The notes: generated by a model from the letters alone, not told the origin. A DNA stretch of 63,972 nt, filler included, from Anaerolineae bacterium (GCA_041082215.1; 8 parts of 7 records of this genome joined end to end with filler, not necessarily neighbours in it); one strand, 5' to 3'; shown: positions 37,198 to 54,086, counted from the whole stretch's first letter. A program made the numbers and translations.

Positions 37198-37360
37198 AAA
37201 AGCATAGGAACAAGGACAGCCCGTCTCCAACGTACAGGATCACCGCTAATGCTTCAAAGCACACTCACAGCACAAAGTCTGTGCGGTATATGAATGAGGG
37301 AGACGGGCTTTTTGTATTTTTTGTTGGTTAATCTCCATACTCGGGTTGGGTGGAAGTGAA

Positions 37361-38725
37361 ATGCCGGGTCTTTCTTTGAAAGATCTGCCCGACCGCCTAC
37401 GAGAGAGATTCTCCCTGAGTGCCTACGCGCGTTTCATTCTTCTCTTCACGCTGTTCAACCTGATGTTCTGTGTTCTGCTCCTCCTATCCATACAAAACGT
37501 GCAGCTTAGGGAGGGCAAACGAAGCCTCGAGGGAGCGCTCAGTACTGTGGAGGCTGTTGCTGCGACGGCGGAACAGCAAATCACGCAACTTCGATCCACT
37601 CTGAATGCGACTCCGGCCCAAATTGGACAGGCACCTACGTCGACAGAGACAAATACTCCTACCCCGCAACCTTCTCCTTTGTCCCCTACCCCTTCTGCTC
37701 CTTCGCCGACAGCTACCTTCAGGACTCCCACGATGGCACCCTTTACTCTTACTCCCACTGCTACACCCTCCTTGCCCACCCCGACTCATACCGCTCTCCC
37801 TACCCCACAGCCGAGTGTGCCGCCACCGTCGCGTCCCACTAACACTTATACGCCGACTCCTACTCCAACTCCTACGCCCACGTCAACTCCGACCCTTCCG
37901 CCACCTCAAGTCTTCTCGATCTTTCCCCCTTCATCGGAGACGGGAAGTCTGGTCTCGCCTGTCGAAGTGTGGGGTTGGGGGTTTCAGACTGGCGCGGACG
38001 CTCAAATAAGCAATGGGATTAACACCATTAGCCTGCAGCCGTGCACCGTTGTCAGCCCCACCCTGGTCACGGGGACCCTCGATCTCTCCACCGCTGCCGG
38101 TGGTCCGTGGGACGTCGTGGTTACCAATCCGGATACTCAGTCTGGCATGGCTTCGAATGCTTTTACTGTGACTATCCCCATCACGTATGCTTATGGAGTA
38201 ACGGCTAACTGCTCTGCAGAGGTCTCCGGTTGTTCAGAAGTTACTGGCGCACCCGATGGAAACCAGGCAGACATTTCCCCTGGAGGAGTCATCACCCTGG
38301 ACCTGGGGGTGGGAAATGGCATTCGGGATGGGAGAGGCTACGATCTGGTCTTTTATGAATGGTGGAATACCGACCCTCCTCCAACCGGAAGTATTTACTT
38401 GGATTGGATTGTCATAGAGCTATCAGAGGATTTGAACATTTGGTATGAGGTTTTTAACTGGGGAGATGGGTATCGGTCCCCTATGGACGACTTCACGAAC
38501 ATTGCCAATTTCAGTAATGATAGCGATGGAGAGGTGGATAATGAGCGGATTCTCGCGGATTTGCTTTATGGTAATCCTCCTACTCCTCCTTATCCCACCG
38601 GTATCCTGATAGACATCGCTTTTCTGGGCGGTCGCCCCGATGCTTCGTATCGGTATGTTCGCCTTCGCTGTCCAGATGGGGGCGATGATCCAGCTCAGGT
38701 GGATGGTGTTGAGAGGCTTCATTAA
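37361..38725 (+). CDS. Membrane-anchored Pro/Thr-rich protein with an Ig-like (IPT/TIG) domain and an acidic C-terminal domain
   Basis: TM helix, coiled coil, PTPT linker, PPQVFSIFP...WDVVVTNPD. Visibly lower GC than the neighbouring genes. Confidence 0.7.
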   Translation: MPGLSLKDLPDRLRERFSLSAYARFILLFTLFNLMFCVLLLLSIQNVQLREGKRSLEGALSTVEAVAATAEQQITQLRSTLNATPAQIGQAPTSTETNTPTPQPSPLSPTPSAPSPTATFRTPTMAPFTLTPTATPSLPTPTHTALPTPQPSVPPPSRPTNTYTPTPTPTPTPTSTPTLPPPQVFSIFPPSSETGSLVSPVEVWGWGFQTGADAQISNGINTISLQPCTVVSPTLVTGTLDLSTAAGGPWDVVVTNPDTQSGMASNAFTVTIPITYAYGVTANCSAEVSGCSEVTGAPDGNQADISPGGVITLDLGVGNGIRDGRGYDLVFYEWWNTDPPPTGSIYLDWIVIELSEDLNIWYEVFNWGDGYRSPMDDFTNIANFSNDSDGEVDNERILADLLYGNPPTPPYPTGILIDIAFLGGRPDASYRYVRLRCPDGGDDPAQVDGVERLH

Positions 38726-38763: not shown

Positions 38764-39042
38764 ATGGACAACGTAAGAAACCCCTTTTGCCTGGCCCCTG
38801 TTACCCAGCGTGAACAGTTCTTTGGCCGCCAGAAGGAAGTCCGAAGGACGCTTAGCTTGCTGAACCAGATGCAGTGTGTCTCTGTCATCGGGCCAAAGGG
38901 GATCGGCAAGACTTCCTTTCTCAACTACCTGGCTCACCCATTTACTCGCTCCACCTGCGGTCTGGCAGAGGAGCACGTCTTCGTCCTTCTCGATGGAAGG
39001 AGACTCGCAGGGCGCCAGCCTGATGAGTGCTTCCTGCACATG
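38764..39042 (+). CDS. STAND/AAA-type P-loop ATPase N-terminus, truncated at contig end
   Basis: NPF...FFGRQKEV...SVIGPKGIGKTSFL. Confidence 0.75.
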
Positions 39043-39217
39043 NNNNNNNNNNNNNNNNNNNNNNNNNNNNNNNNNNNNNNNNNNNNTTAATTAATTAANN
39101 NNNNNNNNNNNNNNNNNNNNNNNNNNNNNNNNNNNNNNNNNNAGGGGTGAGGGCAGTAATAGGGCGGCTCTGCCAGCCGCCCCCGGCTGGTAGTGAGCGA
39201 CGGAGCGAAGAGACTCC

Positions 39218-40273
39218 TTGAGAACTTATGCATATCTCTATCCCCAGGTCTGTGCCTGGGAGAATCTCTATCTGGCCTGGCGCAAGGCGCGTAAGGGGAA
39301 GCGGGGCCGGGAACCAGCCGCGACCTTCGAGTTCGACCTGGAGGCCAATCTGCTCCGTCTTCAGCAGGAGTTAGAGACAAAGACCTACCAGCCCGGCCCT
39401 TACCGCTCCTTCTACATTCACGACCCCAAGCGCCGCCTCATCTCCGCCGCCCCCTTCCGCGACCGTGTCGTCCATCACGCCCTCTGCAATGTTATCGAGC
39501 CTCTCTTTGAGCGCCGCTTCATCTTCGATTCCTACGCCAACCGGGAGGGCAGGGGCACCCACCGGGCGCTGGACCGCTGCCAGAAATTCGCCCGCCGCTT
39601 CCCCTACGTCCTCCAGTGCGACGTCCGCCAGTTCTTCCCGTCCATTGACCACGCAATACTCAAGGAGATTCTCGGTCGGGTCATCGCCGACCCGGATGTG
39701 ATGTGGCTGGTGGACCGCATTCTGGAAAGCGGTGAGGGGGTGCTCAGCGAAGAATACCAGATGGTCTACTTCCCCGGCGACGACCTCTTCGCCGTCAACC
39801 GTCCGCGGGGGTTGCCCATCGGCAACCTGACCAGCCAGTTCTGGGCCAACTGCTACCTGGACCCCTTCGACCACTTCGTGAAGCGGGAGCTGCGCTGCAA
39901 GGGGTACCTGCGGTACGTGGACGACTTCCTGCTCTTTGCCGACGATCAGCGCGTGTTGTGGGCCTGGCGGGAGGCGGTGATCGAACGCCTGGCCCGGCTG
40001 CGGCTGACGATCCACGAGGAGCGGGCGCATCCTTACCCTGTAACCGAGGGTATCCCCTTCCTGGGCTTCGTGATCTATCCCAACCATCGGCGGTTGAAAC
40101 GGCGGAACGTGGTCAATTACCGGCGGCGGCTGCGCTGCCTTCTGGCGGCCTACGCCGCCGCCGCAATCCCCCTTGACCGGGTGGATGCCTCCATCCAGGG
40201 CTGGATCAACCACGCCCGCTATGGCGATACCTGGGGGCTCCGCCGGGCTGTGCTGGAACCAGTGGTCTTGTAG
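39218..40273 (+). CDS. DGR reverse transcriptase
   Basis: [76 protein letters not shown]. 351 aa with no endonuclease extension. TTG start. Confidence 0.95.
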
Positions 40274-40291
40274 ACGAAAGGAGACAGTGCG

Positions 40292-40639
40292 ATGCAACAA
40301 TCTCCCATCTTCGCCCGGACGCATGACCTGCTCCTCTGGCTCATCCCCCGCACGACCCAATTCCCCCGCGAACAGCGGTTCGTGCTGGGCAAGGCGGTCC
40401 AGGAGACGGCGCTCCGGTTTCAGGAGGCGCTGATCGAGGCAGCGATGACCCGCGGCCGGGAGCAGCAGAGGGCGCTGGCCCGCGCCGACCTGGACCTGAC
40501 CAAACTTCGCTTTTATCTCCGGTTGTGCCAGGACCTGCAACTGATCACCCTGCGCCAGTACCGCCACGTGGCAGAGATGATGGCAGAGGTCGGTCGCCTG
40601 CTGGGCGGCTGGCGCAGTAAGGTCTCCGGAGCGGCGTGA
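40292..40639 (+). CDS. avd: DGR accessory variability determinant (four-helix bundle)
   Basis: 115 aa, basic. FPREQRFVLG...LRFYLRLCQDLQLIT..QY...EVGRLLGGW. Sits between the RT and the TR. Confidence 0.92.
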   Translation: MQQSPIFARTHDLLLWLIPRTTQFPREQRFVLGKAVQETALRFQEALIEAAMTRGREQQRALARADLDLTKLRFYLRLCQDLQLITLRQYRHVAEMMAEVGRLLGGWRSKVSGAA

Positions 40640-40681
40640 CGGGTGCCGGACACCCTTAGCGCGGGGGCAGGCCGAAGGAGA

Positions 40682-40803
40682 CGCGCGTTGTGCGTGGCGG
40701 CTCGTGGAACAACCATCAGGAGAACGCCCGTTGCGCGGAGCGCAACAGGAACAACCCGGACAACTCGAACAACAACATCGGTTTTCGGTGCGTCTCCCAC
40801 GAC
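40682..40803 (+). repeat. DGR template repeat (TR)
   Basis: Intergenic, AAC-rich (10 AAC triplets, 29 A). Matches 43861-43982 at every non-A position. Confidence 0.96.
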
Positions 40804-41000
40804 TTTCCGCACTGCCGGCAATGCCACGGGTCGCGCGGCGGCGCTGCCGGCCGCGTGGACGCGGGCCGAGGCCTGAGAGAGACGGCGCGGCCTGTCCCTG
40901 GCCGACGCTTGCATGAAGCGTCGGGCGAATATAAAATGGCCCTGCCGCCGGCAGGCAACGCCCGCGGCAGGGCCGGCCCTTTCCTCTCGGGAGGTATGCG

Positions 41001-44000
41001 ATGGACCGAATAGTCGCGGTTATCCTGCTCGCCGTCCTTCTCCTGGTGGCGTTCACCGCCGTCCATGCTCAGACCCCTCCTCCTCCGACGCCGACACCCA
41101 CCCCGGAGCCGCCCGAACTCCCCGGCACGCTGGGTGATATCCAGAAACTGATCCAGTTCGTCCGGACTGTGGGGCCCTGGACGGCACTGGCGCTCCTCCT
41201 CCTGCTGGGCCTGGCCGCCTTCGTCTGGAGGGTAGGGGGAGCGCTGACGGCCGAAGGGGCCGGAAAGGCAGCGGAGTGGATCCGCCGGGGGATCGAGGCT
41301 GGCTGGACCCGCGCCACCCACCGCGTCCCGCCGGAGGAAAAGGCCGTCCTCAAGGACGTCCAGACCTTCTGTAAACAACTGGAACTGAAGGGTTTTGTCA
41401 AAGAGCACCTGATCATCGTATCGCTGGAAAGCGTCTACGTCCCCCTGACGGCGCGGGGCGCCATCGCGCCCGGCGGCCTCGGCGAGGGGATGCCCCTGCT
41501 GCGCGCCAGAGAGGAGGGCGGGGAGGTCCCCCTCACCGACCTCATTCCCCGCCACCGCTGCCTGGTGCTGGTGGGCGAGGCCGGCTCCGGCAAGACCACC
41601 TTTCTGAAATACGTGACCCTCACCGCCGCAGATGCCTGCGCCGGGCGCAGGCCCCAGGGGGCGGACTGGCTGCCCCGGCCCACGCCTCTCCCCCTCTACC
41701 TTCCCCTCCACGGCCTGGGGATCTATCTGCGGGACCAGAAGCCCGCCGACCGGGAGTCCCCCAGTCCCGACCTGTTGCGGGATTACATCGCCCACCACCT
41801 GCGCCATCTCGACCTTCCCGAAGGGTGGATCGCGGACCGCCTGAAGAGGGGCAATATCCTGCTCCTGCTGGACGGGCTGGACGAGGTGGCCCGCTTCGAG
41901 GACCGCCGCTTCATCGCCGAGATGGTCACCCGCTTCGCCGACCTCTACGACCGCTGCCGGCTTGTCGTCACCACCCGGCCTGAGGGGTATGAGGGGGCAG
42001 CCCAACTGGGCGGGGAGTTCACGCGGCGGGACATCAATCCCCTCCAGTGGCCGGACGACATCCGCACTTTCCTCTACCGCTGGAACGAAGCCATCCAGCA
42101 GCGGGCCGAGCAGGGGAATCTCTCTGCGCGGGGCAGAAAGGAGGCCCACGAGAAGGCCGAGCGTATGATGGCCCGGCTTGAGGCTGCCCCGAACGTCCGC
42201 GAACTGGCCAACAACCCTCTCCTCCTCACCGTGATGGCCATCGTCCACTACAACGTCGGCACCCTCCCGGAGCGGCGGGCCGACCTCTACGACGCGGCCA
42301 CCGAACTGCTCCTGGGGTGGGATAAGAAGATGGGCAGGGATGCGCTGGCCCCGCCTCCCTGGCTCGATAGCCTCTCCGGCGGCCAGCGCCGCCTGCCGCT
42401 GGAGGAACTGGCCTTTGAGTTCCAGGAGGGGCGCGTTCTGGAGCGCCCACGGGAGCGGGTGCTGGACTCTCTGGCGGACTATTTCCTGGCCGGGAGGGGA
42501 CGGGAGGCAAAAGAGACGGCCCGCTGCCGCGCCGAAGAGTATTTGACCTGGGTCACCGGCCGCACCTACGTCCTTCAGGAGATCGGCGGCAGCATTCGTT
42601 TCTACCGCAAGCCCTTCCAGGAATACCTGGCCGCCCGGCGACTGGCCCGCCGTCCGGACCTGCAGGACCAGGTGGCCCGTACCCTGGAGACGGACTGGCA
42701 GGACCGCTGGTGGGATGAGGTCCTCTGCCTGACGGTGGGACAACTGGTGAGCGACGATCCCCAGAAGGCCGGCAGCCTGCTTTCCTCCATCCAGAGCCTG
42801 CCCGACCCCCAGCAGGCCCCCCATTACAACGCCACTTTCGTCGCCCGCGCGCTGGCCGACGTGCCGGAAGGGCTGCTGGGGAGCGTCTGGGAGGTGAAGG
42901 AGCGGGTGACGGAGGAGCTGGCTAACGCCGTCGCCGCCGCGGAGCCAGCCTTCACCCCTAAGGCCAGGCTGGAGGCAGGGGTGGCCCTGGGCCGGCTGGG
43001 GGACCCCCGGCCGGGCGTCGGCGTGGACCCTCAAACGGGGCTTCCAGACATCCTCTGGGTGGAGGTGCCCGCCGGCCCCTTCTGGATGGGCTCCACCGAT
43101 GAGGAAGTGGAGCGGTGGAAGACATGGGTTCGAGGGAAGGTGGAGGACGGGACTTACACGGCTGAGAGGCTTTCTCCAGAGGACCTGCTTGAGATTTTCG
43201 GGGCCTGGCTGGAGGGGGAGCGGGGCCAGCACCCCCTGGACCTGCCTGCGTTCCAGATCAGCCGCTACCCCATCACCAACGCCCAGTACCGCTGCTTTAT
43301 GGAGGCCGGCGGATATGACGACCCTGCCTGGTGGGGTGGCGAGGAAAGCCCCGGCTGGACCTGGCGGCAGGGGGAACCACGCTGGCCGTGGCAGCGGACC
43401 GACCGGCCCGATTTCTGGGACGATCCCCGCTTTAACGGCCCCAACCAGCCGGTGGTCGGGGTCACCTGGTATGAGGCGATGGCCTTCTGCCGCTGGCTGA
43501 CGGAACGCCTGCGGCCCCACGTAGGGGCGCAGTGTGCTGCGCCCCCAGGGGGATGGGAGATCCGCCTGCCGACGGAGGCCGAATGGGAGAAGGCCGCCCG
43601 GGGCGCCGACGGCCGGACCTGGCCCTGGGGGAACGAGTGGGAAGAGGGGCAGGCCAACACCTGGGAGGCCGGCCTGAAGCAGACCTCCCCGGTGGGCATC
43701 CTCCCGCGTGGAGACAGCCCCTATGGCGTAGCCGATATGGTTGGGAACGTGTGGGAGTGGACGCTGAGCCTCTGGGGACCGGACTGGCGTCGCCCAGCGT
43801 TCGGGTATCCGTACCGGCCCGGTGACGGCCGCGAGGACACCTCTCCGGGGGATGATGTGGCGCGCGTTGTGCGTGGCGGCTCGTGGGACTCCCTTCAGGA
43901 GGACGCCCGTTGCGCGGGGCGCCTCAGGGGCGACCCGGTCGTCTCGTTCAACCTCATCGGTTTTCGGTGCGTCTCCCCCGTCCCCGGTTCTGGTTTCTGA
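41001..44000 (+). CDS. DGR target: signal peptide/TM - NACHT NTPase - FGE-sulfatase (CLec-fold) domain with C-terminal variable region
   Basis: Walker [10 protein letters not shown], Walker [27 protein letters not shown] motifs [58 protein letters not shown]...IGFRCV. Confidence 0.93.
43861..43982 (+). repeat. DGR variable repeat (VR)
   Basis: Near the 3' end of the target gene. 20 substitutions relative to the TR, all at TR adenines. Confidence 0.96.
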
Positions 44001-44541
44001 TTTCTGGTTTTCTGGATTCTGGAAGGGGGGTCTGGGGGGCGAAGCCNNNNNNNNNNNNNNNNNNNNNNNNNNNNNNNNNNNNNNNNNNNNTTAATTAATT
44101 AANNNNNNNNNNNNNNNNNNNNNNNNNNNNNNNNNNNNNNNNNNNNCCCCCCCCCCGGGAGGGGGGCGAAAGTGCCGGCCGGGAGCCGGAATTGTAGCGC
44201 AACTCCCCAGGAATTGCGCTGTTTTGGGCCGGAAGCCGGACGGGGAGTTGCTGGGGCCGATTATGGAGCTGCTGTAGCACAGGATTTTGCAGGGAGGGGG
44301 CGCCCGCCGCAGGCGGGCGGGGGTGGAATGAGGGCCAGGCCGGATGGCCGGGCTCGCAGCGTCTTTTTCTCTATCAGCCCAGCAGCCCCACCGCCTTCGG
44401 CCAACTGCCTCCTGTCCTGCCGGAGCCCCACTTCATCCCCGGCGTCCCTGGCGTTCTCAGTGTTCTCAGGCACTTGCATCGAACCCCCCTCAGAGTTGCT
44501 TTTGCACAAAGCACCATTTCTGAGTATAATTTGATAGTGCA

Positions 44542-46530
44542 ATGAGTAAGAAACCACCTGTTGAAGGAGAGACGGCATATCCCGGACCTCCAGGAGAGGA
44601 CCCGCCCCAGCAGACCACGCGCGGGCTTTCCACCCGGTTTGTCGGCGGGCCTGAACCGGCGGCAGGCACCAGGCGCATGCAGCCCGAGGCCCTGCCCCGG
44701 GTGGACGGACGCCTGATGGAAGGAGCCCTCCTCCAGGGACGCTACCGCATCCTCGGGGTCCTGGGAGCTGGGGGGATGAGCACGGTCTATAAGGCGCAGG
44801 ACCTGCACTTCCCCAGGGTGCAGCGGCTGTGCGCGGTCAAAGAAATGACCAACACCGCCACCGACCCGCAGGTGCGGGCTATGGTGATGCGGAACTTCGA
44901 GCGGGAGGCCAGCATCCTGGCCACCCTCAGCCACCCCGCCATCCCCCAGGTCTATGACTACTTCAGCGAAGGAGACCACTCCTACCTGGTGATGGAATAC
45001 ATCCAGGGGAAAGACCTCGAGGCGCTCCTCAGTGAGACGGAAGGGTTCCTCCCCGAAGCACAGGTGGTCAGTTGGGCCATTCAGATCTGCGATGTGCTGG
45101 CCTACCTCCACAGCCATAAGCCCAGTCCGATCATTTTCCGGGACCTGAAGCCCTCCAACATCATGCTGGATGAGCAGGGGCGGATCAAGCTGGTGGACTT
45201 CGGCATCGCCAAGGTCTTCGAGAGCGGCCAGAAGGGTACGATGATCGGTACGGAGGGGTACTCGCCCCCGGAGCAGTACCGGGGGATCGCCGAGCCCCGG
45301 GGGGACCTCTACGCGCTGGCGGCGACGATGCACCATCTCCTGAGCAAACAGGACCCCCGGCTGGAGCCGCCCTTCTCCTTCCAGGAGCGGCCAATCCACA
45401 AGACCAACCCCCTGGTCTCCAATGAGCTCCAGGAGATCATCAACCGGGCGCTGGAGTACGACATCAACCGGCGGTTCAGCTCCGCCGACGAAATGAAGCG
45501 GGCACTGATGAGCCTGCGATCGGCCCGGCAGGCAATGCCTGCTGCTCCCATCGTCGAGGGCATCCAGCCCGGCGCGCCGATGGCCCTCTGGCAGTTCCCC
45601 TGCGAAGACGAGGTCCGTTCCAGCCCGACGATCCACGAGGGGAAGCTGTACGTCGGCTGTTACGACAACAACCTCTATGCGCTGGATGCCGAGACGGGGA
45701 AGTTCCTCTGGAAATATCCCACCGAGGGAGGGATCGCTTCCTCCCCTTTTGTGGCCGAAGGGAGGGTCTTCATCGGTTCGGAGGACCGCTCGCTCTATGC
45801 CATCAACGCCGACACAGGCCGCCTGATATGGACCTGCCCGACCAAAGGGAGGATTTACTCCTCCCCCCGGGTCCAGTTCGGCCACGTGTTTATCGGCTCC
45901 GACGATCACCGGCTGTATGCCGTGAATGTGGCCAGCGGGCGGGTGGCGTGGACCTTCGAGGCAGAGGGGCCGATCCGCTCGACCCCTGCCATCGGCGCCG
46001 ATGCCATCTATTTCGGCGACGAGGCTGGCTCTCTCTATGCCGTGGGCGTCAGCGGCAAGCTGATCTGGCGGTTCCGTACCCGGCGTGGGGTGACCTCCTC
46101 CCCCCTCCTGACCAAGGAGCTGGTCTACGTGGGCTCCCAGGACTGGTATGTGTATGCCCTCGACCTCCGCTCCGGCTGGTCGGTCTGGCGGTATCGTACA
46201 GGGGGGCCGGTCGTCTCCTCACCGGCTATAGGGGGAACGACCCTCTTCATCGGCTCGGCCGATGGGGACATCTACGCCCTGGACGCCACCAACGGCTACC
46301 TGGTATGGCGGTACAAAACGGGGGGGCAGGTGACTTCTTCTCCAGCCACGTATGAAGGGGCGGTTTACGTGGGGTCTGTGGACGGGTTTCTCTACTCGCT
46401 GGACGCTCAAACCGGACAGCTCCGCTGGCGGTTCCAGACCAGTGGCCCGATAACCTCTTCCCCCCGGGTGTCGAACGGTATCGTGTATATTGGTTCCACA
46501 GACCATAACGTCTACGCGTTGCCTGCGTAA
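44542..46530 (+). CDS. Hanks-type Ser/Thr kinase with C-terminal PQQ-like beta-propeller repeats
   Basis: LGAGGMSTVY, AVKE, FRDLKPSN, DFGIA, GTEGYSPPE. About eight SSP...VYVGS.D..LYALDA.TG...W repeats. Confidence 0.93.
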   Translation: MSKKPPVEGETAYPGPPGEDPPQQTTRGLSTRFVGGPEPAAGTRRMQPEALPRVDGRLMEGALLQGRYRILGVLGAGGMSTVYKAQDLHFPRVQRLCAVKEMTNTATDPQVRAMVMRNFEREASILATLSHPAIPQVYDYFSEGDHSYLVMEYIQGKDLEALLSETEGFLPEAQVVSWAIQICDVLAYLHSHKPSPIIFRDLKPSNIMLDEQGRIKLVDFGIAKVFESGQKGTMIGTEGYSPPEQYRGIAEPRGDLYALAATMHHLLSKQDPRLEPPFSFQERPIHKTNPLVSNELQEIINRALEYDINRRFSSADEMKRALMSLRSARQAMPAAPIVEGIQPGAPMALWQFPCEDEVRSSPTIHEGKLYVGCYDNNLYALDAETGKFLWKYPTEGGIASSPFVAEGRVFIGSEDRSLYAINADTGRLIWTCPTKGRIYSSPRVQFGHVFIGSDDHRLYAVNVASGRVAWTFEAEGPIRSTPAIGADAIYFGDEAGSLYAVGVSGKLIWRFRTRRGVTSSPLLTKELVYVGSQDWYVYALDLRSGWSVWRYRTGGPVVSSPAIGGTTLFIGSADGDIYALDATNGYLVWRYKTGGQVTSSPATYEGAVYVGSVDGFLYSLDAQTGQLRWRFQTSGPITSSPRVSNGIVYIGSTDHNVYALPA

Positions 46531-46541
46531 GGGGGGTGCGG

Positions 46542-47405
46542 ATGGCCTTTTTGCGAAAGCTTTGGAGGGGGAGGAAGCCGGCCCAGGCCGGGCCTGCCCC
46601 CTCACCCGTCGGGCGGAAAGAGTCTGTCGGCTGGCAGGTGGAAGTGGGCTGGGCCACCGATGTGGGCCGGCAGCGACAACACAACGAGGACACCGTTCTG
46701 GTCCTCGAGGCCAATCAGGGAGGGGATAACCCGATGCCTCCCTTCGGCCTGTTTGTCCTGGCCGATGGGATGGGCGGGCATCGGGCCGGGGAGGTCGCCA
46801 GCGGGCTGGCTGCCCGCACCGTGGCGGGCTATGTCGTCCAGCACGTCTATCTGAGCGCGCTCAGTCGGCGGGAGCATGGGGCAGGCGAGCCTTCTCTGAA
46901 AGAGGTGCTGGTAGAGGCGGTCAATCTGGCCAACACAGCCGTTGCCGCTGAGGTCCCCGGGGGCGGCACGACACTGATCTGCGCTATGGTGCTGGGGACC
47001 CGGGCCTACATCGCCAATGTCGGCGACAGCCGTGCCTACCTGGTGCTCCCCGAGGGGCTGGAGCGGATCACCCGCGATCATTCGCTGGTGGATCGGCTGG
47101 TGGAGCTCGGACAGTTGACGACCACGGAGGCGGCCAACCATCCCCAGAAAAACGTGCTCTACCGGGCGGTGGGGCAGGGTGGGGTGCTGGAAGTGGACGT
47201 GTTCGTCCGGTCCATCCCGCCCGGTGGCCGGCTCCTCCTCTGCACCGACGGCCTGTGGGGTATGGTCCCCGAAGAGGAGATGGCGCATCTGATCGCCAGG
47301 GCCCGCTCCCTTCAGGCCGCCTGCGACGCGCTGGTGATAGCAGCGAACGAGGCTGGCGGCAAGGATAATATCAGCGTTATCCTTGTAGAACCTCCGGGTG
47401 CATGA
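46542..47405 (+). CDS. PP2C-family Ser/Thr phosphatase
   Basis: DVGRQRQHNED, LADGMGGH, NVGDSRAY, DHS, CTDGLWG, GGKDNIS. Confidence 0.93.
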   Translation: MAFLRKLWRGRKPAQAGPAPSPVGRKESVGWQVEVGWATDVGRQRQHNEDTVLVLEANQGGDNPMPPFGLFVLADGMGGHRAGEVASGLAARTVAGYVVQHVYLSALSRREHGAGEPSLKEVLVEAVNLANTAVAAEVPGGGTTLICAMVLGTRAYIANVGDSRAYLVLPEGLERITRDHSLVDRLVELGQLTTTEAANHPQKNVLYRAVGQGGVLEVDVFVRSIPPGGRLLLCTDGLWGMVPEEEMAHLIARARSLQAACDALVIAANEAGGKDNISVILVEPPGA

Positions 47406-48862
47406 TGGAGATAGAGAAAGACCTCTACGCTCTGCTCGGCGTCTCGCCGGATGCGACGCAGGAGGAGATCAAGCGGGCCTACCGGACCCTGGCCCGCCAG
47501 TATCATCCGGACAGCGGCACCGAGATGGCCTCCGCCGAGCGGTTCCAGGCGGTTCAGGAGGCGTACCGGGTGCTGGGAGACCCGGTGCGCCGCCGGGCCT
47601 ACGACCGGAGACGGGCCGAGCGGGGGCTGGGCATCCGTTCGATGGTGGCGTGGGATGTGATGCTCAGCCAGGATGAGCTGCCCGCCATCGCCGAAGAGCA
47701 GATGCTTTACCTCCTGATAGACATCCGCCCGGCCGGCCTCGCGCGAGCCAGAAGGCTCCCCCTCAATCTCTGCCTGGTGATTGACCGCAGTACCTCTATG
47801 CAGGGGGACCGCCTGGACTATGTGAAGGCAGCGGCCCACCAGGTCATTGACGATCTGGAGGACCAGGATACGCTGGGGATCATCTCCTTCAGCGACCGGG
47901 CGGAAATCCTGATGCCCAGCCAGCGGCTGGAGGATCGGGCGCGGGCCCACGCACGGGTCTCCTCCATCTGGGCCAGCGGGGGAACGGAGATCCTGCAGGG
48001 GCTGAAGGCCGGCCTGGAACAGTTGCGCCGGGTCAACCGGGAGGATTCGATCAGCCATCTGATCCTGCTGACCGATGGCCGGACTTACGGAGATGAGGAC
48101 GAGTGTATCGTCGAAGCCCGCCGCGCTGGCCTGGAGCGGATCGGCATCAGCGCCCTGGGGATTGGCGAGGACTGGAACGACGCCTTTCTGGACGACCTGG
48201 CCCATCAGGCCGGGGGCACCTGTGCCTACATTTCCTACCCCCAGCAGATCCGGGATGTGTTGAGGGAACAGGTACGGGGGCTGGGGTCCCTGTTCGCCCG
48301 CAATATGCGGCTTATGCTCCGCTTCACCGACAAGGCCTGGCTGGAGACAGCCTTCCGGGCTGCTCCATATATCGAACGATTGATCCCGAAGGAGGGGGCG
48401 CTGGATATCGGTATGCTGCAGGCGGGGTCGCCGGTGCGTGTGCTCCTGGAAACGGTCGTCGCACCGGTCCCTGTTGGTCAGCACCGCCTGCTCCAGTTGG
48501 AGCTGACAGCGGATGTGCCCGCGCTGGGACGGCAGGAACGGCTGCTCTTCGACCTCGATATGGATTTCCGGAAGGAGCCGGCCCAGCAACCTGTTCCGGC
48601 CGCCATCGTGAACACATTGGGCCGGTTGAGCATCTTCCGCATGCAGGAACAGGCCTGGCAGGCACTGGAGAGTGGAGAGCGAGAGGAGGCCCGCAGGCGA
48701 CTGGAAACGATCGCCACACGGCTTCTGGATATGGGTGAAAAAGAATTGGCCCATATGACCCTTCTCGAGGCCGGGCGGGTGGCTCAGGGAGGACAGGTTT
48801 CGGAGAAGGGACACAAGACCATCAAGTACGGCACGCGCAGTCTGGGCCTCAAGGGAGGATAG
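47402..48862 (+). CDS. DnaJ-domain / vWA-domain fusion protein
   Basis: J domain (DLYALLGV...IKRAYR...YHPD) followed by vWA with MIDAS motif DRSTSM, LLTDG, LGIGEDWN. Confidence 0.9.
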   Translation: MMEIEKDLYALLGVSPDATQEEIKRAYRTLARQYHPDSGTEMASAERFQAVQEAYRVLGDPVRRRAYDRRRAERGLGIRSMVAWDVMLSQDELPAIAEEQMLYLLIDIRPAGLARARRLPLNLCLVIDRSTSMQGDRLDYVKAAAHQVIDDLEDQDTLGIISFSDRAEILMPSQRLEDRARAHARVSSIWASGGTEILQGLKAGLEQLRRVNREDSISHLILLTDGRTYGDEDECIVEARRAGLERIGISALGIGEDWNDAFLDDLAHQAGGTCAYISYPQQIRDVLREQVRGLGSLFARNMRLMLRFTDKAWLETAFRAAPYIERLIPKEGALDIGMLQAGSPVRVLLETVVAPVPVGQHRLLQLELTADVPALGRQERLLFDLDMDFRKEPAQQPVPAAIVNTLGRLSIFRMQEQAWQALESGEREEARRRLETIATRLLDMGEKELAHMTLLEAGRVAQGGQVSEKGHKTIKYGTRSLGLKGG

Positions 48863-48871
48863 GAGGGAACC

Positions 48872-49381
48872 ATGATCGAGTGCCCATCGTGTGGGAAGAA
48901 ACATCGTCCTGGAACGCTCCTGTGCACGGAGTGCGGTGTGTATCTTCCCACAGGCGGTGCGTTGCGGACCGAGCCGCTTCCAACCGACGAGCTCCCGAAG
49001 TCCCGAGCCACAAGCTGGGAGGCTGTGGCGCCGGAGGAAGAAAGGGTAGAAGGGCTCCGTCCCCTGCGTGTTCATATCCTGGATAGCGACCGGCGGGTGC
49101 AGTTGCCCGCTATGCCGGAGATCCTGCTGGGACGTCTGGACACTGCCCACGGCATCTTTCCCGATCTGGACCTGACGGCAGACGGAGGGCTGGAAATGGG
49201 GGTCTCCCGCCGCCATGCCAAGATTATCCAGCGCGGCGGGGAGTTTTTCATCGAAGATGTGGGGAGCGCCAATGGGACCTTTCTGAATGAGCAACGGCTG
49301 ACCCCCTATCTGCCCTATCCCCTCCACGAAGGGGATGAAATCCAGATGGGCCGTCTGCGGGTCCGGATCATCCCGGAATGA
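48872..49381 (+). CDS. Zinc-ribbon FHA domain protein
   Basis: CPSCG...CTECG, and FHA motifs LGR, VSRRHA, SANGTFLN. Confidence 0.92.
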   Translation: MIECPSCGKKHRPGTLLCTECGVYLPTGGALRTEPLPTDELPKSRATSWEAVAPEEERVEGLRPLRVHILDSDRRVQLPAMPEILLGRLDTAHGIFPDLDLTADGGLEMGVSRRHAKIIQRGGEFFIEDVGSANGTFLNEQRLTPYLPYPLHEGDEIQMGRLRVRIIPE

Positions 49382-49452
49382 GCAGGGTGTCTTCATGGAG
49401 CGGCTTCCCACTCGCCGCGAAGCCCGCAGGGCGGACGGGATAGGAGGAGCCT

Positions 49453-49695
49453 ATGCCGCTGACCGTTCTGGTGCATATGTTGAATGAGGATCCCATCGTG
49501 GCCGAAGTGGATCGGCTGCCGGATCCAACCGACCAGTATCTGCTGTGTGAAAACCCCCGACGCAGGGATGGCCGGGACCTGAGCTATGTGCTGCCGGAGG
49601 TGAAGGCTCTCCTCGTGCCCTGGCATCGCATCCACTGTGTGGAGATATTGCCCAGCGAGGAGGAGGAGAAGATCGTCACCTTCGTGCGGGAGTGA
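49453..49695 (+). CDS. Small hypothetical protein
   Basis: 80 aa, AGGAGG RBS, overlaps the start region of the next gene. Confidence 0.65.
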
Positions 49696-49697
49696 GG

Positions 49698-50438
49698 ATG
49701 AAAGAACCCGGCCCCCTGATCCTCGTTGTAGACGACGAAGAGCGGATCGTCCGCTTCGTCACAATGAACCTGGAGCTGGAAGGGTTCCAGGTGATCACCG
49801 CTCCCTCCGGCATCGAGGCGCTCCGGCGCGTGCGGGAGGACCTGCCCGACCTGGTCCTTCTGGATGTGATGATGCCGGACCTGGACGGTTTTGAGACCCT
49901 CCGGCTGCTGCGGGAAACTTCGGATGTCCCGGTAATCATGCTCACCGTCCGCTCGGAAGAAGAGGACGTCGTCCGGGGGCTGGAGCTGGGGGCGGATGAC
50001 TATATCACCAAACCCTTCAGCATCCAGGTGCTCACCAGCCGCATCCGGGCCGTCCTCCGCCGCGTCGCTCCTCCCTCCGGCCCGGAATCCGCCGTCCTCG
50101 AGATTGACGATTACCTGAGCGTGGATTACAACCGCCGGGAGGTGATCGTCGGGGGGAGGCGGGTGAAGCTCCGACCCACCGAGTTCCGCCTTCTCTACCA
50201 CCTCATCGAAAACGCTGGCTGGGTTGTCCCCCACGAGACGTTGCTTTCCAAGGTCTGGGGATATGAGTATCGGGACGAAGTCCATTACCTTCGGCTCTAC
50301 ATCACCTATCTGCGCAAAAAGATCGAACCTGACCCCTCCCGTCCGCGCTATATTCTCACCGAACGGGGGGTAGGGTACCGGTTTGTGGACTTTCGAGGCA
50401 AGGGGCGGGAGGAAGGAGAAAAGGGAGGAAATGGGTAG
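49698..50438 (+). CDS. OmpR/PhoB (KdpE-like) response regulator
   Basis: REC domain plus winged helix (LRPTEFRLL...VWG...LRKKIEPDP...TERGVGYRF). Confidence 0.93.
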
Positions 50439-50943
50439 GGCCTACAAAGTCGTCGTCACCGGCGCCTTCAACGCCGGCAAAAGCTCCTTCATCAGCACTA
50501 TCTCTGAAATCCCCGTGGTCTCCACCGAGCGCCGCATCACCGACCACCTGGCCGAGGTGAAGGAGACGACAACGGTGGCGATGGACTACGGGCAGGCTAC
50601 CGTCGGCGGGTGTCTTTTCCACCTCTACGGCACCCCTGGTCAGGAGCGGTTCGACTTTATGTGGGACATCCTCTCCCGGGAGATGGACGGTCTGTTAGTC
50701 CTGGTGGACAGCACGGACCGTTCGTCGCTGACCGTTGCCCGCCGCATCCTCCGGCGTTTGACCCGCCGGACGCGCGTCCCTCTGCTGGTGGTCGCGACCA
50801 AGCAGGACGGGCGTCGGGCCCTCTCACTGGAGGAGGTGGCCGAGGCCCTGCACATCGAGCCGGCCACCGTCGTCCCGTGTGACCCCCGCCAGAAGCAGAG
50901 CGTGCAGGGAGTCCTCCGCACCCTGTTGACCCGCCTCGAGTAA
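50431..50943 (+). CDS. Small GTPase, MglA/ATP-GTP-binding family
   Basis: [34 protein letters not shown]. Confidence 0.88.
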
Positions 50944-51223
50944 GCCCCTCATCTCCCCTGCCCCCCTTCTCCCCAACAATGGGGGAGAAGGGGGTCGGTG
51001 CCGACTTCATCACGAACGGCACGAATGGGCCGAATCCCGCGAATCGTAGAGCGTTTTTTTATTCGTGGGAATTCGTGCATTCGTGTCATCCGTGATGGCA
51101 GTAGGTAGTAATTTTTCTACTGCAAATCTAATGGACTTCTTGTGCTCATCTAACGCAGATTCGGCAAAATAAAGACGCCTTTCAGCGAAAGAGAGGATTT
51201 CGAGAGAAAGGAGGTGACGCAAG

Positions 51224-51676
51224 ATGTCGGATCTGGTACGATGGGAGCCCTTCCGTGACCTGATCAGCCTGCGTGAGGCGATGGATCGCCTGTTCGAGGA
51301 GTCCTTCGTGCGGCCGTGGGGTGGCTGGCTGCGCCCCTCCGGGGCGGAGACGCTCGCCGTGGATATGTATGAAACGGATAACGAGGTCGTCGTGAAAGCG
51401 ACCGTCCCCGGCGTGAAACCGGAGGACCTGGACATCAGCGTCACCGGCGACACGCTTACGATCCGGGGCGAGGTGAAGCGGGAGGAGGAAATCAAGGAGG
51501 AAAACTACCTGCGACGTGAGCGGTACTATGGCTCCTTCTGCCGCTCCCTGCCGCTCCCGACCCAGGTGGTCGCCGAAGACGCGGAGGCTGTGTTCGAGAA
51601 CGGCGTGCTGACCCTCACGCTGCCCAAGGCGGAAGAGGTCAAGCCGAAGGCGATCAAGGTGAAGGCGAAGAAGTAA
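51224..51676 (+). CDS. Hsp20/alpha-crystallin small heat shock protein
   Basis: WEPFRDL...VDMYET...PGV...ERYYGSF.RSL.LP...FENGVLTLTLPK. Confidence 0.94.
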   Translation: MSDLVRWEPFRDLISLREAMDRLFEESFVRPWGGWLRPSGAETLAVDMYETDNEVVVKATVPGVKPEDLDISVTGDTLTIRGEVKREEEIKEENYLRRERYYGSFCRSLPLPTQVVAEDAEAVFENGVLTLTLPKAEEVKPKAIKVKAKK

Positions 51677-51689
51677 CCCCTGGAGGTGA

Positions 51690-52139
51690 ATGATGACCGT
51701 GGTGCATTTCAACCCGTTCCGTGAGATGATGACCCTCCGGGAGGCGATGGACCGGCTCTTTGAGGAGTCCTTCGTCCGGCCCCGGGGCGGGTGGCGGCGC
51801 GGCTCGCCGGAGGAGCCCCTCCGACTGCCGGTGGATGTCTACACCACGCCGGAGGAGATCGTGCTGGTCGCCTCCCTGCCCGGGCTGTTGCCGGAGGAGG
51901 TGGACATCTCCATCGAGGGAGATACCCTCACCATCCGCGGCGAGCTCCGTCCACCCCTGGACAACGTGGAGTATCTCTTCCAGGAACGCCCCTACGGCCA
52001 CTTTGCCCGCTCGCTCACGCTCAACGTGCCGGTGGACGTGGAGAAGGCGGAGGCGGTCTTCGAGAACGGCGTCCTGACCCTCACACTGCCCAAGATGGAA
52101 GCGGTCAAGCCCAAGGCGATCAAGGTCAAGACAAAGTAG
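51690..52139 (+). CDS. Hsp20/alpha-crystallin small heat shock protein (tandem paralogue)
   Basis: REAMDRLFEESFVRP, PVDVY, ERPYGHFARSL, FENGVLTLTLPK. Confidence 0.93.
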   Translation: MMTVVHFNPFREMMTLREAMDRLFEESFVRPRGGWRRGSPEEPLRLPVDVYTTPEEIVLVASLPGLLPEEVDISIEGDTLTIRGELRPPLDNVEYLFQERPYGHFARSLTLNVPVDVEKAEAVFENGVLTLTLPKMEAVKPKAIKVKTK

Positions 52140-52156
52140 CTGCTGGGTGGGACGGG

Positions 52157-52190
52157 GAGGGCAGAGGGGAACCCCCTCTGCCCTCTCTTC
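52157..52190 (+). terminator. Probable terminator hairpin after the hsp20 pair
   Basis: GAGGGCAGAGGGG-AAC-CCCCTCTGCCCTC then TCTTC (weak U tract). Confidence 0.5.
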
Positions 52191-52240
52191 TGCCCGGGGT
52201 AGTGTGGGATGAATCGTTAACGCGCCCAGTTCCTGAACAG

Positions 52241-52323
52241 TGGGGCGGGCGGGATTCGAACCCGCACGTCCTTGCGGACAGAGGATTTTAAGTCCCCGGC
52301 GTCTACCGTTCCGCCACCGCCCC
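52241..52323 (-). tRNA. tRNA-Leu(TAA)
   Basis: GGGGCGG/CCGCCCC acceptor stem, anticodon loop CT-TAA-AA, long variable arm, GGTTCGAATCC. No encoded CCA. Confidence 0.95.
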
Positions 52324-52379
52324 ATACCATAACGGGCAGTCCGAAGGACTGCCCGTTTCTTAAAGTCCTCACCCGGAGG

Positions 52380-52451
52380 AGGCGACGGCCGGAATCGAAC
52401 CGGCGGATGAGGGTTTTGCAGACCCTTGCCTTGCCACTTGGCTACGTCGCC
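52380..52451 (-). tRNA. tRNA-Cys(GCA)
   Basis: GGCGACG acceptor stem, anticodon loop CT-GCA-AA, GGTTCGATTCC, U discriminator. Confidence 0.95.
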
Positions 52452-52467
52452 TGAACATCCTGAACTG

Positions 52468-52540
52468 AGCGGGCGACGGGACTCGAACCCGTGGCCTTCT
52501 CCTTGGCAAGGAGACGTTCTACCAACTGAACCACGCCCGC
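52468..52540 (-). tRNA. tRNA-Gly(GCC)
   Basis: GCGGGCG acceptor stem, anticodon loop TT-GCC-AA, GGTTCGAGTCC. Confidence 0.95.
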
Positions 52541-52551
52541 TGGCGGTATAG

Positions 52552-52580
52552 ATTATACCACAACCCTTACGGCAAGGCAA
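52552..52580 (-). promoter_or_regulatory. Promoter of the tRNA Gly-Cys-Leu operon
   Basis: Minus strand TTGCCT, 17 nt, then TATAAT with a TGn extension, ending 11 nt before tRNA-Gly. Confidence 0.7.
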
Positions 52581-52585
52581 GTTCG

Positions 52586-53347
52586 ATGGCTTCGATGGCT
52601 GTTTTCATCTACCTTTCCCCCCATCTGGACGACGCCGTCCTTTCCTGCGGCGGGCGCATCTGGCTCCAGAGGCGGACGGGGATGCGCGTGCAGGTGGTGA
52701 CGGTCTTCGCCGGTGGGCCAGGGGGGAAGCTTTCCCCCTTCGCCCACTCCCTCCACCAGCGGTGGGGGCTGGGAACCGACGCCCCCTCCGCCCGCCGGGA
52801 GGAGGACAGGGCGGCGCTGGCCCTCGTGGGGGCGGAGCCGGTCCATTGGGACCTGCCCGACTGTGTCTACCGCTCCGTTGCCGACGGTGCGTTTCTCTAT
52901 CCGGATGAAGGGGCGCTCTGGGGGCCGCTCCATCCGGCGGACCGGCCGCTTCTGGAGGAGCTGAGCCGTCGGATCGGTACGCTGCCTGCGGATGCGGCCC
53001 TCTGTGTTCCGCTGGGAGCGGGGGGGCATGTGGACCACCGGCTGGTGCGCCAGGCGGCGGAGAGGACAGGGCGGCCGCTCCTTTACTACGAGGAGTACCC
53101 CTATGCCGAAGGGGCTGCGACGGTGGGGGTGGCGCTGGGAGGAGACAGTTGGGAACCCGAGGTGGTTTTCCTGGACGAGGAGGCGCTGGCAGCTAAAGTC
53201 GCGGCGGTGGCCTGTTACCGCTCCCAGCTCAGCACCTTCTGGACCGACGGAGCGGAGATGGAGGCGCGCATCCGCGCCTATGCGCTGCGCGTTGGCGGTG
53301 GACAGCCAGCGGAACGGTACTGGCGCCGCTATGTAGGACAAGCTTAA
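52586..53347 (+). CDS. PIG-L/LmbE family N-acetyl deacetylase
   Basis: SPHLDDAVLSCGG, RREED, GGHVDHR, YEEYPY, YRSQL. Confidence 0.9.
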   Translation: MASMAVFIYLSPHLDDAVLSCGGRIWLQRRTGMRVQVVTVFAGGPGGKLSPFAHSLHQRWGLGTDAPSARREEDRAALALVGAEPVHWDLPDCVYRSVADGAFLYPDEGALWGPLHPADRPLLEELSRRIGTLPADAALCVPLGAGGHVDHRLVRQAAERTGRPLLYYEEYPYAEGAATVGVALGGDSWEPEVVFLDEEALAAKVAAVACYRSQLSTFWTDGAEMEARIRAYALRVGGGQPAERYWRRYVGQA

Positions 53348-53586
53348 GCTTGTCCTACAGTATTGGTCCCTATAGAGGCGCGCATCCGCGCCTATGCGCT
53401 GCGCGTTGGCGGTGGACGGCCAGCGGAACGGTACTGGCGCCGCTGTGTAGGACAAGCTTAAGCTTGTCCTACAGTATTGTTCCCTGTAAAGGCGCGCATC
53501 CGCGCCTATGCGCTGCGCGCTGGCGATGGACGGCCAGCGGAACGGTACTGGCGCCGCTATGTAGGACAAGCTTAAGCTTGTCCTAC
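53263..53586. repeat. 114-bp tandem triplication, each unit carrying the perfect 26-bp palindrome GTAGGACAAGCTTAAGCTTGTCCTAC
   Basis: Units start at 53263, 53377 and 53491. Palindromes at 53333, 53447 and 53561. Confidence 0.92.
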
Positions 53587-53986: not shown

Positions 53987-54086
53987 NNNNNNNNNNNNNN
54001 NNNNNNNNNNNNNNNNNNNNNNNNNNNNNNTTAATTAATTAANNNNNNNNNNNNNNNNNNNNNNNNNNNNNNNNNNNNNNNNNNNN

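Follow-up and report, generated by a model that had tools for sequence, protein, structure and literature searches.

The locus analysed here is, taken as one explanation, very probably a cellular (non-phage) diversity-generating retroelement (DGR) with the gene order reverse transcriptase (RT), Avd, template repeat, target, whose target belongs among the STAND-NTPase-lectin "antigen sensors" diversified by DGRs, a class already described. It provides a compact example of such STAND-lectin receptors, with a 4.9-kb cassette, a single target and a target N-terminus too small to hide an enzymatic effector. It founds no category of its own, since both the concept and this class of architecture are in the literature: the available text of three reports (PMC8195603, 10.1101/2022.07.19.500537, PMC10907252) presents STAND/NACHT-FGE receptors hypermutated by DGRs, some of them with a TM. 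The preliminary description of this DNA, which set the protein apart as a somatically diversified, immune-like receptor, thus overstated its novelty, since adaptive-immune-like DGR STAND-FGS receptors, TM-bearing NACHT-CLec proteins among them, are what these reports describe.

The window, that is the whole stretch of 63,972 nucleotides that was analysed, is an artificial concatenation of eight pieces joined via 100-nt N44-TTAATTAATTAA-N44 spacers, and the entire DGR cassette lies on one of its true contigs, from a metagenome-assembled hot-spring Chloroflexota genome. Two features that appear close to it in the window, a Ser/Thr kinase-PQQ propeller gene (44542-46530) and a STAND fragment (38764-39042), were considered as DGR neighbours and rejected, as each sits on another contig. 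The contig ends 46 nt past the target stop codon. It was also pointed out beforehand that no phage genes occur on the contig, which is literally true but uninformative for a DGR that stands alone on its own 4.9 kb. Because the contig is this short, chromosomal location and partner genes are inferred from relatives only. A promoter scan returned 0 sites, and terminator-like sites numbered 5 against 2.7±1.6 expected, none of them after the target gene. The parts of the cassette are as follows.

39143..44046: true contig (G000:C154, 4904 bp) holding the entire DGR cassette, with artificial spacers at 39043-39142 and 44047-44146
39218..40273, plus strand: DGR reverse transcriptase, 351 aa (Pfam RVT_1, E 1.1e-16; PADLOC generic RT, 5.1e-50)
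40292..40639, plus strand: bAvd (accessory variability determinant), 115 aa (PF22296, E 3.2e-19; NF033474 DivGenRetAVD)
40682..40803, plus strand: template repeat (TR), AAC-rich, pairing with the variable repeat
40990..40994, plus strand: Shine-Dalgarno-like GGAGG, 6 nt ahead of the target ATG
41001..44000, plus strand: DGR target gene, 999 aa (signal-like helix, P/T linker, TM, NACHT, helical linker, FGE/CLec with the variable repeat)
43861..43982, plus strand: variable repeat (VR) at the 3' end of the target, with 19 addressable codons (residues 963-994)

The translation of the RT contains PIGNLTSQ and YVDD, and the first of these includes IGxxxSQ, the signature of DGR RTs. Over most of its length the enzyme is 44-70% identical to RTs that lie beside NACHT-FGE targets at other loci; with the RT of one such locus, L162, it shares 66% and 55% identity over two parts. 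The accessory protein scores 99.3 bits with NF033474 (cut-off 80) and 69.8 bits with PF22296 (cut-off 40), and matches no model in PADLOC.

Across 122 aligned nucleotides TR and VR differ at 20 positions, and all 20 mismatches fall at TR adenines, for which the chance under random placement would be about 3e-13. The TR holds 29 adenines in 123 nt, every one of them at codon position 1 or 2 of the target frame and 0 at position 3. Homology between the repeats stops at about 43982, the contig at 44046, and the VR ends 16 nt before the target stop codon (43998-44000). This adenine-specific pattern agrees with the known DGR route: the TR is copied, its adenines being misread, and the product takes the place of the VR. 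By that route up to 19 codons (residues 963-994) could be rewritten, on what would be the ligand-binding face of the C-terminal FGE/C-type-lectin domain.

Variation of the kind expected from this route is found outside the assembled genome as well. A second VR allele was recovered from 1 of four hot-spring metagenome runs: in run X4, from another sample, a 323-nt contig across the VR differs at 22 letters, and 21 of the 21 listed lie at TR-adenine positions; the allele comes from one contig at depth 7, a modest support that demonstrates alleles and not a rate. More than one adenine-specific VR allele therefore exists in nature. Across 23 homologues, the codons that contain TR adenines have an entropy of 2.54 bits, compared with 0.50 bits for the codons interleaved with them. 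A separate observation concerns the long contigs of runs X1-X3, which stop at 43841, 43886 and 43859, just short of the first variable position (43887); cover of the VR was not seen in these runs. A heterogeneous VR disrupting assembly would fit these breaks, while absent cover is in itself no evidence.

The source genome contains three DGR RTs, namely the present one and those of contigs C52 (81% amino acid identity) and C119 (71%), together with five FGE-domain proteins that carry NACHT, KAP or Mrr-like modules. Among the paralogues are KAP-FGE proteins (C52, C118), a second TM-NACHT-FGE protein (C90) and an Mrr-FGE protein, and one TR, that of C52, matches the VRs of two targets (C52 and C90). 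This multi-RT, multi-FGE content matches the published pattern. In 40 related genomes a close orthologue of the target was not found, the best match having 37% identity, and a scan of genome contigs for a close orthologue of the TM subfamily likewise returned none, the best locus covering the N-terminus (L008) reaching 33%. At related loci RT and Avd lie between two NACHT-FGE targets, and the surroundings include transposases and an S8 peptidase but no phage genes. L162 has this two-target NACHT-FGE layout, and its TM-bearing targets adjoin an S8 peptidase and a WD40 protein.

These relatives bear on whether the DGR could be borne by a phage or prophage, its target then being a viral protein for interaction with the host. 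The contig is too short to argue against this, and one IMG/VR contig (L079) has a NACHT-FGE protein beside recombinase-like genes. However, L079 is the only one of 76 IMG/VR loci that matches the NACHT part, the other 75 matching the FGE domain only; related NACHT-FGE DGR loci lie on contigs of 24-413 kb with ABC-transporter, transposase and peptidase neighbours; and an ATPase anchored in the membrane on its cytoplasmic side does not belong in a virion. Carriage by a phage or prophage is accordingly hardly credible, and the earlier contrast with phage tail-fibre DGRs was borne out by the near absence of NACHT-bearing relatives from viral contigs (1/76 loci).

The target itself consists of the following segments, all on the plus strand.

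41001..41069, plus strand: residues 1-23, signal-like, with n-region MDR, hydrophobic core at residues 4-21 and a VHA/Q signal-peptidase-like site
41070..41126, plus strand: residues 24-42, Pro/Thr-rich linker, predicted disordered and extracytoplasmic
41178..41228, plus strand: residues 60-76, predicted transmembrane (stop-transfer) helix, from hydrophobicity
41559..42083, plus strand: residues 187-361, NACHT NTPase (Pfam PF05729, 37.7 bits against a cut-off of 26.7, E 2.3e-9)
41574-41597, plus strand: Walker A GEAGSGKT, residues 192-199, intact motif
41859-41885, plus strand: Walker B LLLLDGLDE, residues 287-295, intact motif
43206..43973, plus strand: residues 736-991, FGE-sulfatase/C-type-lectin-fold domain (Pfam E 2.9e-50)

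Every sequence feature that had been listed for this protein is present where it was placed, and the reading frame from 41001 to 44000 is open for 999 aa. The proposed domain searches recovered both NACHT (37.7 bits) and FGE-sulfatase (E 2.9e-50) from Pfam. Further NACHT motifs occur at residues 324-327 (TTRP) and 405-409 (NPLLL). The NACHT region is modelled by AF2 with a pLDDT of 80-95, and the best Foldseek matches of the target, solved NLRs that share its NBD, helical and winged-helix fold, are NLRC4 (4kxf, E 2.8e-9), NLRP3, NOD2 and NAIP5, over some 500-600 aligned columns. Profile matches in the PDB for the FGE domain include EgtB, FGE and TvpA (2y3c, E 1.3e-17), so that by sequence comparison the C-terminal domain is assigned to the FGE/C-type-lectin fold and family; the VR occupies its C-terminal face. 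The idea of an NLR-like DGR target with a C-terminal VR sensor is thus upheld by the structural matches of its NACHT fold to NLRC4, NLRP3 and NOD2 and by the position of the VR in the FGE/CLec domain. The protein matches no defence model in PADLOC, and in NCBIfam it gave sub-threshold FGE-family matches and a faint EruA match only. With residues 1-125 as query, the ESM Atlas yielded no lead, the best score being 0.79.

How this protein sits in the membrane has to be read from its N-terminus. Hydrophobicity there reaches Kyte-Doolittle values of 2.9-3.2, and A23 of the putative cleavage site (V21-H22-A23/Q24) has a conservation of 90% or more in 23 homologues. The Pro/Thr linker differs in length among homologues, and pLDDT is below 50 for residues 21-45 of the target model. 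The 22 closest full-length homologues, which are 39-83% identical to the target, retain the arrangement of signal, P/T linker and TM; among 120 matches listed it occurs in 30, and 4 more have a lipobox-like signal with a TM. Based on hydrophobicity, the conserved A-x-A/Q site and the ATP requirement of NACHT, the signal-like helix and the stop-transfer helix are predicted to put a short Pro/Thr stub outside and NACHT and lectin domains inside. Because two hydrophobic segments precede NACHT, NACHT and VR would be cytoplasmic whether the first segment is cleaved or acts as a signal anchor, as had been supposed; the flank charges, however, are ambiguous. At the second helix, K+R amount to 47 in the N flank and 62 in the C flank, with the C side richer in 10 of 23 homologues, and the positive-inside rule was for this reason set aside as topology evidence.

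The weak positive-inside signal could be taken to favour the opposite orientation, an extracytoplasmic receptor with NACHT and FGE outside the membrane that binds phage particles or surface glycans, and one NACHT-CLec target of DGR 3 is predicted to be periplasmic in the available text of Doré et al. (PMC10907252). Such an orientation is nevertheless extremely improbable, given that the two hydrophobic segments return the chain to the cytoplasm, cleaved or not, that NACHT needs NTP and its nucleotide-binding motifs are intact, and that about 920 residues would need export.

On the preferred, cytoplasmic topology, the membrane would hold both the ATPase module (NACHT) and the hypervariable lectin domain against its inner face. 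A cytoplasmic ligand, be it a molecule of a phage or other invader or a non-kin molecule, might then fit the current VR variant, and this fit would release autoinhibition, upon which NACHT would exchange nucleotide and oligomerise, on the model of NLRs, Avs and bNACHT proteins. The output could be either clustering of the N-terminal helices leading to membrane damage, or recruitment of an effector encoded elsewhere. The membrane segment had been called the only candidate effector, a claim that finds no support: the contig ends 46 nt past the stop codon, so that effectors acting in trans are possible, and related loci have an S8 peptidase and a WD40 protein.

Apart from the low-complexity P/T linker, no part of the protein is as poorly conserved as its first 126 residues, which suits a simple anchor as well as an effector. 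In the former case, the membrane segment would do no more than hold the sensor at the inner face of the membrane, the place of phage entry and of envelope or septal events, and a separate effector such as a peptidase or a TIR protein would be recruited after oligomerisation. We consider this quite possible, if short of an even chance. It accords with an N-terminal module that is poorly conserved in sequence but retained in architecture, with the S8 peptidase and WD40 protein that adjoin the TM-bearing NACHT-FGE targets of L162, and with the frequent use of adaptor domains and trans effectors by published STAND-FGS systems, as far as the available text of these reports goes (PMC8195603, PMC10907252). 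Yet Pfam finds no adaptor domain (EAD or Death-like) in the target, no partner gene is visible on the 4.9-kb contig, and a 75-79% identical orthologue (L154) has DUF2157 and radical SAM genes downstream, which are not obvious effectors.

In the latter case, the N-terminal membrane module would be the effector in the manner of a resistosome, with the oligomerised NACHT bundling the TM and the amphipathic helices flanking it into a pore or lesion that depolarises or kills the cell in an abortive infection. This we regard as a possible but doubtful output. NLR-like proteins usually carry their effector at the N-terminus, and the proposed survey of homologues did reveal swapping there: paralogous subfamilies have TIR, DUF4062 or Zn-ribbon modules at this position, and the membrane modules come in three differing types (signal plus TM, lipobox plus TM, and two TM helices). 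There is also no room for a further domain between the TM, which ends at residue 76, and the NACHT pre-domain, which is conserved from L127, and the model places a helix at residues 43-57 followed by a single long helix (59-106) that continues the TM to about residue 106. Against this stand the sequence variability of residues 1-126, which have no invariant residue (entropy about 2 bits) and are the most variable part apart from the low-complexity P/T linker, and a pLDDT of 40-66 across the same residues. Moreover, a cleaved signal with an external P/T stub is unneeded for a pore and rather resembles a topogenic anchor, the 4.9-kb contig leaves adjacent effector genes possible, and an S8 peptidase and a WD40 protein lie near a related locus. 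The strongest form of the proposal, that the signal, P/T stub and TM constitute a dedicated constitutive death effector whose helices are gathered into a pore by a NACHT ring once the hypermutated lectin domain binds an invader molecule, appears unlikely. If true, it would represent a bacterial, somatically diversified counterpart of the plant resistosome channels, with recognition, switch and execution in one polypeptide of the TM subfamily and no partner gene needed.

The nature of the ligand admits a further reading, namely recognition of kin or of self and non-self, in which the receptor would sense molecules of neighbouring filament or mat cells, similar to NLR-based heterokaryon incompatibility in fungi. 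This alternative is raised in the available text of Doré et al. (PMC10907252). The named homologues of the target come from Chloroflexota and Anaerolineae MAGs, the target sequence is present in hot-spring metagenome runs, and placement at the membrane would suit sensing at cell-cell junctions. With the sensor predicted to be cytoplasmic, however, a neighbour's molecules would have to be transferred in, and those bacterial NACHT and Avs proteins that have been characterised are antiphage defences in the available text of Kibby et al. (10.1101/2022.07.19.500537), which together make kin recognition quite improbable. Returning to the preferred reading of a membrane-held cytoplasmic sensor, the compact cassette, the single target and the small N-terminus make the locus a convenient construct for two questions: whether such receptors oligomerise once a ligand is bound, and whether output can come from a bare membrane module.

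Doré et al. 2024 (PMC10907252) described antigen sensors of multicellular bacteria, such as DGR 3 of Thiohalocapsa PB-PSB1 and the "clade 5D" loci, and according to its available text the members of the class still await experiments on function, ligand, oligomerisation and defence phenotype. Those systems and the present one have in common a cellular DGR, a central NACHT, a single C-terminal CLec domain that contains the VR, and an N-terminal extension without known domain, with a TM in some of the Doré targets (PMC10907252). At the genome level, several related DGRs per genome and KAP NTPases in other targets are likewise shared, and the hosts in that report include filamentous Chloroflexi (PMC10907252). 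Compared with these systems as the available text presents them, the present locus has one target on its contig, the order RT, Avd, TR, target, and a hot-spring habitat; the combination of a cleavable-signal-like helix, a P/T linker and a single TM is not described as such there (PMC10907252).

STAND NTPase-FGS conflict systems were reported by Kaur, Burroughs, Iyer and Aravind (eLife 2020, PMC7159879; eLife 2021, PMC8195603), who proposed them as analogues of hypermutating adaptive immune receptors. They share with our locus the STAND and FGS domains and a linked RT with a four-helix accessory protein, whereas for the N-termini the available text of both papers stresses EAD adaptor, TIR, peptidase and kinase domains and does not mention a signal-plus-TM arrangement. 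Kibby et al. (10.1101/2022.07.19.500537) included among antiphage bNACHT proteins an "antigen receptor type, FGS", whose sensor is said to be diversified by a DGR RT in several cases. The target resembles this type in its NACHT, its C-terminal FGS sensor and the logic of an N-terminal effector; in the available text, however, the bNACHTs tested as phage-protective come from different clades, no test of an FGS-type member is reported, and TM regions are treated as sensors and not as N-terminal anchors (10.1101/2022.07.19.500537).

Outside the STAND proteins, the target is similar to two classical DGR targets, Treponema denticola TvpA (2y3c) and Mtd of Bordetella phage, in its FGE/C-type-lectin fold, its C-terminal display of the VR and its adenine-specific mutagenesis. 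Both differ from the present protein, TvpA being a surface lipoprotein and Mtd a tail-fibre, in that they act extracellularly and have no NTPase. In plant CC-NLR resistosomes of the ZAR1 type, an N-terminal helix acts on the membrane after oligomerisation. The likeness to the target is a functional analogy only, as the N-terminal parts are not homologous, and unlike ZAR1-type proteins the target is predicted to be constitutively inserted in the membrane.

The contig of the source genome that spans window positions 39143-44046 in its entirety (C154, 4904 bp) is a complete diversity-generating retroelement (DGR), with reverse transcriptase (RT), accessory variability determinant (Avd) and template repeat (TR) upstream of a target gene that holds the variable repeat (VR).

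Features of the DGR cassette and its target protein
39218-40273: RT, RVT_1 in Pfam
40292-40639: Avd, DivGenRetAVD equivalog at 99.3 bits versus a cut-off of 80; PF22296
40682-40803: TR
41001-44000, + strand: target gene, 999 aa by translation, with GGAGG 6 nt ahead of its ATG
43861-43982: VR, in the 3' part of the target ORF
N-terminus: signal-like, MDR, an 18-residue hydrophobic core and V21-H22-A23 followed by Q24 (read from the translation)
Residues 24-42: Pro/Thr-rich stretch (read from the translation)
Residues 60-76: hydrophobic transmembrane (TM) segment, 17 residues (read from the translation)
Residues 192-199: Walker A, GEAGSGKT
Residues 287-295: Walker B
Residues 324-327: TTRP motif
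Residues 405-409: NPLLL motif

The eight pieces of the 63,972-nt window are joined by seven artificial 100-nt spacers (N44-TTAATTAATTAA-N44; 11293-11392, 39043-39142, 44047-44146, 53987-54086, 57273-57372, 60103-60202 and 62726-62825) and map to seven contigs of a draft genome of 3.53 Mb in 174 contigs; those at 44147-53986 and 54087-57272 both belong to contig C155, at places ~64 kb apart. Synteny read across the spacers is spurious. Thus, a STAND fragment at 38764-39042 and a kinase at 44542-46530 are not neighbours of the DGR, because they lie on other contigs. The former (+ strand, at the end of C152) is the 5' part of another STAND NTPase gene with AAA_16 and nSTAND1 matches, cut at the contig end; ahead of it, 37346-38725 encodes a 459-aa protein that has a hydrophobic helix at its N-terminus, a long Pro/Thr/Ser-rich region and no Pfam match. 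The latter (+ strand, C155) encodes a 662-aa protein in which a Ser/Thr protein kinase is joined to a PQQ/BamB-like beta-propeller, and is unrelated to the DGR contig.

The TR/VR pattern of this element is adenine-specific. TR and VR differ at 20 of 122 nt, all 20 being TR adenines, and the 29 adenines of the TR occupy codon positions 1 (12) and 2 (17) but never position 3, addressing 19 codons within residues 963-994. Almost identical contigs turn up in four hot-spring metagenome runs, spread over two studies, one of which may be where the assembly came from. One of these runs (X4) yields a second natural VR allele, on a single 323-nt contig of depth 7 that covers the VR and differs from it in 22 letters; all 21 of those listed fall at TR-adenine positions. 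Across 23 aligned family members, mean entropy is 2.54 bits at TR-adenine codons versus 0.50 bits at the interleaved codons of residues 955-995. Together, this allele and the family entropy point to natural diversification by the element. Five spaced TTCTGG copies (43983-44030; GGTTCTGGTTTCTGATTTCTGGTTTTCTGGATTCTGG) lie beyond the VR, straddle the stop codon and give way to G-runs at the end of the contig; they could have a bearing on the VR's 3' boundary element. In the four runs, only short contigs, some 88-95% alike, cover the RT gene's 5' part (39143-39860), and these probably represent RT paralogues from this genome or related strains; such sequences would explain the shortness of DGR contigs.

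The genome does hold two further DGR RTs, with 81% (C52) and 71% (C119) amino-acid identity, on contigs of 1.4-4.5 kb. It also encodes four further FGE-domain proteins: KAP-NTPase-FGE proteins on C52 and C118, another NACHT-FGE protein on C90 that has two TM helices, and a fragment of Mrr-like-FGE type on C111. The C52 TR serves two targets on separate contigs, pairing with the VRs of C52 and C90, whereas the TR of C154 pairs with its own VR only. For the FGE proteins of C118 and C111, no TR was found.

The target had been described preliminarily from its sequence as a membrane-tethered NACHT protein ending in a hypervariable lectin fold, and this observation is correct, well above chance: the signal-like helix, Pro/Thr stretch and second hydrophobic helix are all present in the translation, and Pfam recovers both domains. 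NACHT (residues 187-361) scores 37.7 bits against a gathering score of 26.7, with its motifs intact, and FGE-sulfatase (residues 736-991) has an E-value of 2.9e-50; the family profile also matches the solved DGR target TvpA (2y3c; E 1.3e-17). In an AlphaFold2 model that draws on 23 homologues, mean pLDDT is 72.4; values lie at 80-95 across NACHT and the helical region and are low across residues 1-160 and the VR. For the central part, Foldseek ranks NLRC4, NLRP3, NOD2 and NAIP5 highest among PDB structures; for the FGE part, the top matches are ToxD, EgtB and CalU17.

Given two hydrophobic segments ahead of NACHT, the chain past residue 77 should be cytoplasmic, with the first segment either cleaved or kept as a signal anchor. 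Lysines and arginines flanking the second helix (47 versus 62, with more on the C side in only 10 of 23 homologues) do not settle the orientation. The intact NTP-binding motifs agree with a cytoplasmic NACHT, and from sequence this placement appears well founded. By analogy with established STAND and NLR proteins, the lectin domain would bind a ligand, releasing NACHT for nucleotide exchange and oligomerisation.

A search with residues 1-700 scored 7999 candidates, of which 1827 pass E ≤ 1e-3; NACHT and FGE-sulfatase occur together in almost every one of the 120 listed, and those that are named come from Chloroflexota or Anaerolineae MAGs. Classified by hydrophobicity, these 120 (query included) comprise 30 with a signal-like helix and TM, 4 with a lipobox-like signal and TM, 11 with a single TM (several resembling 5'-truncated gene calls), 70 with no TM ahead of NACHT and 5 truncated. 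N-termini are swapped within the family, the soluble ones including zinc ribbons, TIR, DUF4062 and CbiA-like domains and coiled coils. The layout of signal, Pro/Thr linker of variable length, helix and TM is kept in all 22 of the closest full-length homologues (39-83% identity), and A23 is conserved in at least 90% of aligned homologues. Alignment with these 22 reveals no invariant residue ahead of L127, and variability outside the VR is highest in residues 1-126, the low-complexity linker excepted. The segment may be an anchor only, with the effector acting in trans; that the module is itself the effector, the only candidate in the preliminary description, seems rather unlikely. In one 1211-aa homologue (P0011), the TR is placed immediately ahead of the target and shares its frame, as at C154, and the gene call begins inside the translated TR, giving an N-terminus rich in N and D codons and ending GFRCVS.

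The best match in 40 related genomes has 37% identity, and the target behaves as a variable accessory gene. An RT relative is also present in 14 of 46 fetched loci matching residues 1-700, many of them short. A 75-79% identical orthologue (L154), cut at its 5' end, has DUF2157 and radical-SAM genes downstream. At three loci (L170, L162 and L008), two NACHT-FGE targets surround RT and Avd, among transposases, a MacB/FtsX permease and an S8 peptidase with a WD40 protein, and no phage genes were seen. At one of these (L162:5683-8200), a DDE transposase gene splits the RT, with the S8 peptidase and WD40 protein nearby. Of 76 matching IMG/VR loci, 75 match the FGE domain alone and only L079 matches the NACHT part; its 1185-aa NACHT-FGE protein (8927-12484), with an N-terminus resembling a metallophosphoesterase, lies beside recombinase-like genes, and the contig may be an integrative element rather than phage. 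For the C154 target, kin recognition in place of defence appears improbable.

The preliminary interpretation as a DGR-diversified NACHT-lectin receptor was right in kind, yet the concept is not new: this protein is a further member of a class published by Kaur et al. (2021), Kibby et al. and Doré et al. (2024). Kibby et al. name FGS-type 'antigen receptor' proteins that carry NACHT and are diversified by DGR RTs (bioRxiv 10.1101/2022.07.19.500537). Doré et al. describe DGRs diversifying NACHT, nSTAND and KAP-CLec targets in multicellular bacteria, including filamentous Chloroflexi, annotate TM domains and predicted localisation, and note N-terminal extensions without known domains in many targets (PMC10907252). 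STANDs with FGE-sulfatase sensors are shown in a 2026 paper (PMC13581612). In the accessible DGR-NACHT/STAND literature we found no publication devoted to the subfamily with signal, Pro/Thr linker and TM, although supplementary figures or tables may list it. The cassette offers a compact test case, and its interest is moderate. Kaur et al. reported STAND NTPase-FGS proteins with swapped N-terminal modules, present in several copies per organism with differing NTPase types, and viewed them as potential analogues of hypermutating adaptive immune receptors (PMC8195603). These systems resemble ours in their linked RT and four-helix protein, and the present genome likewise has both NACHT- and KAP-FGE proteins.
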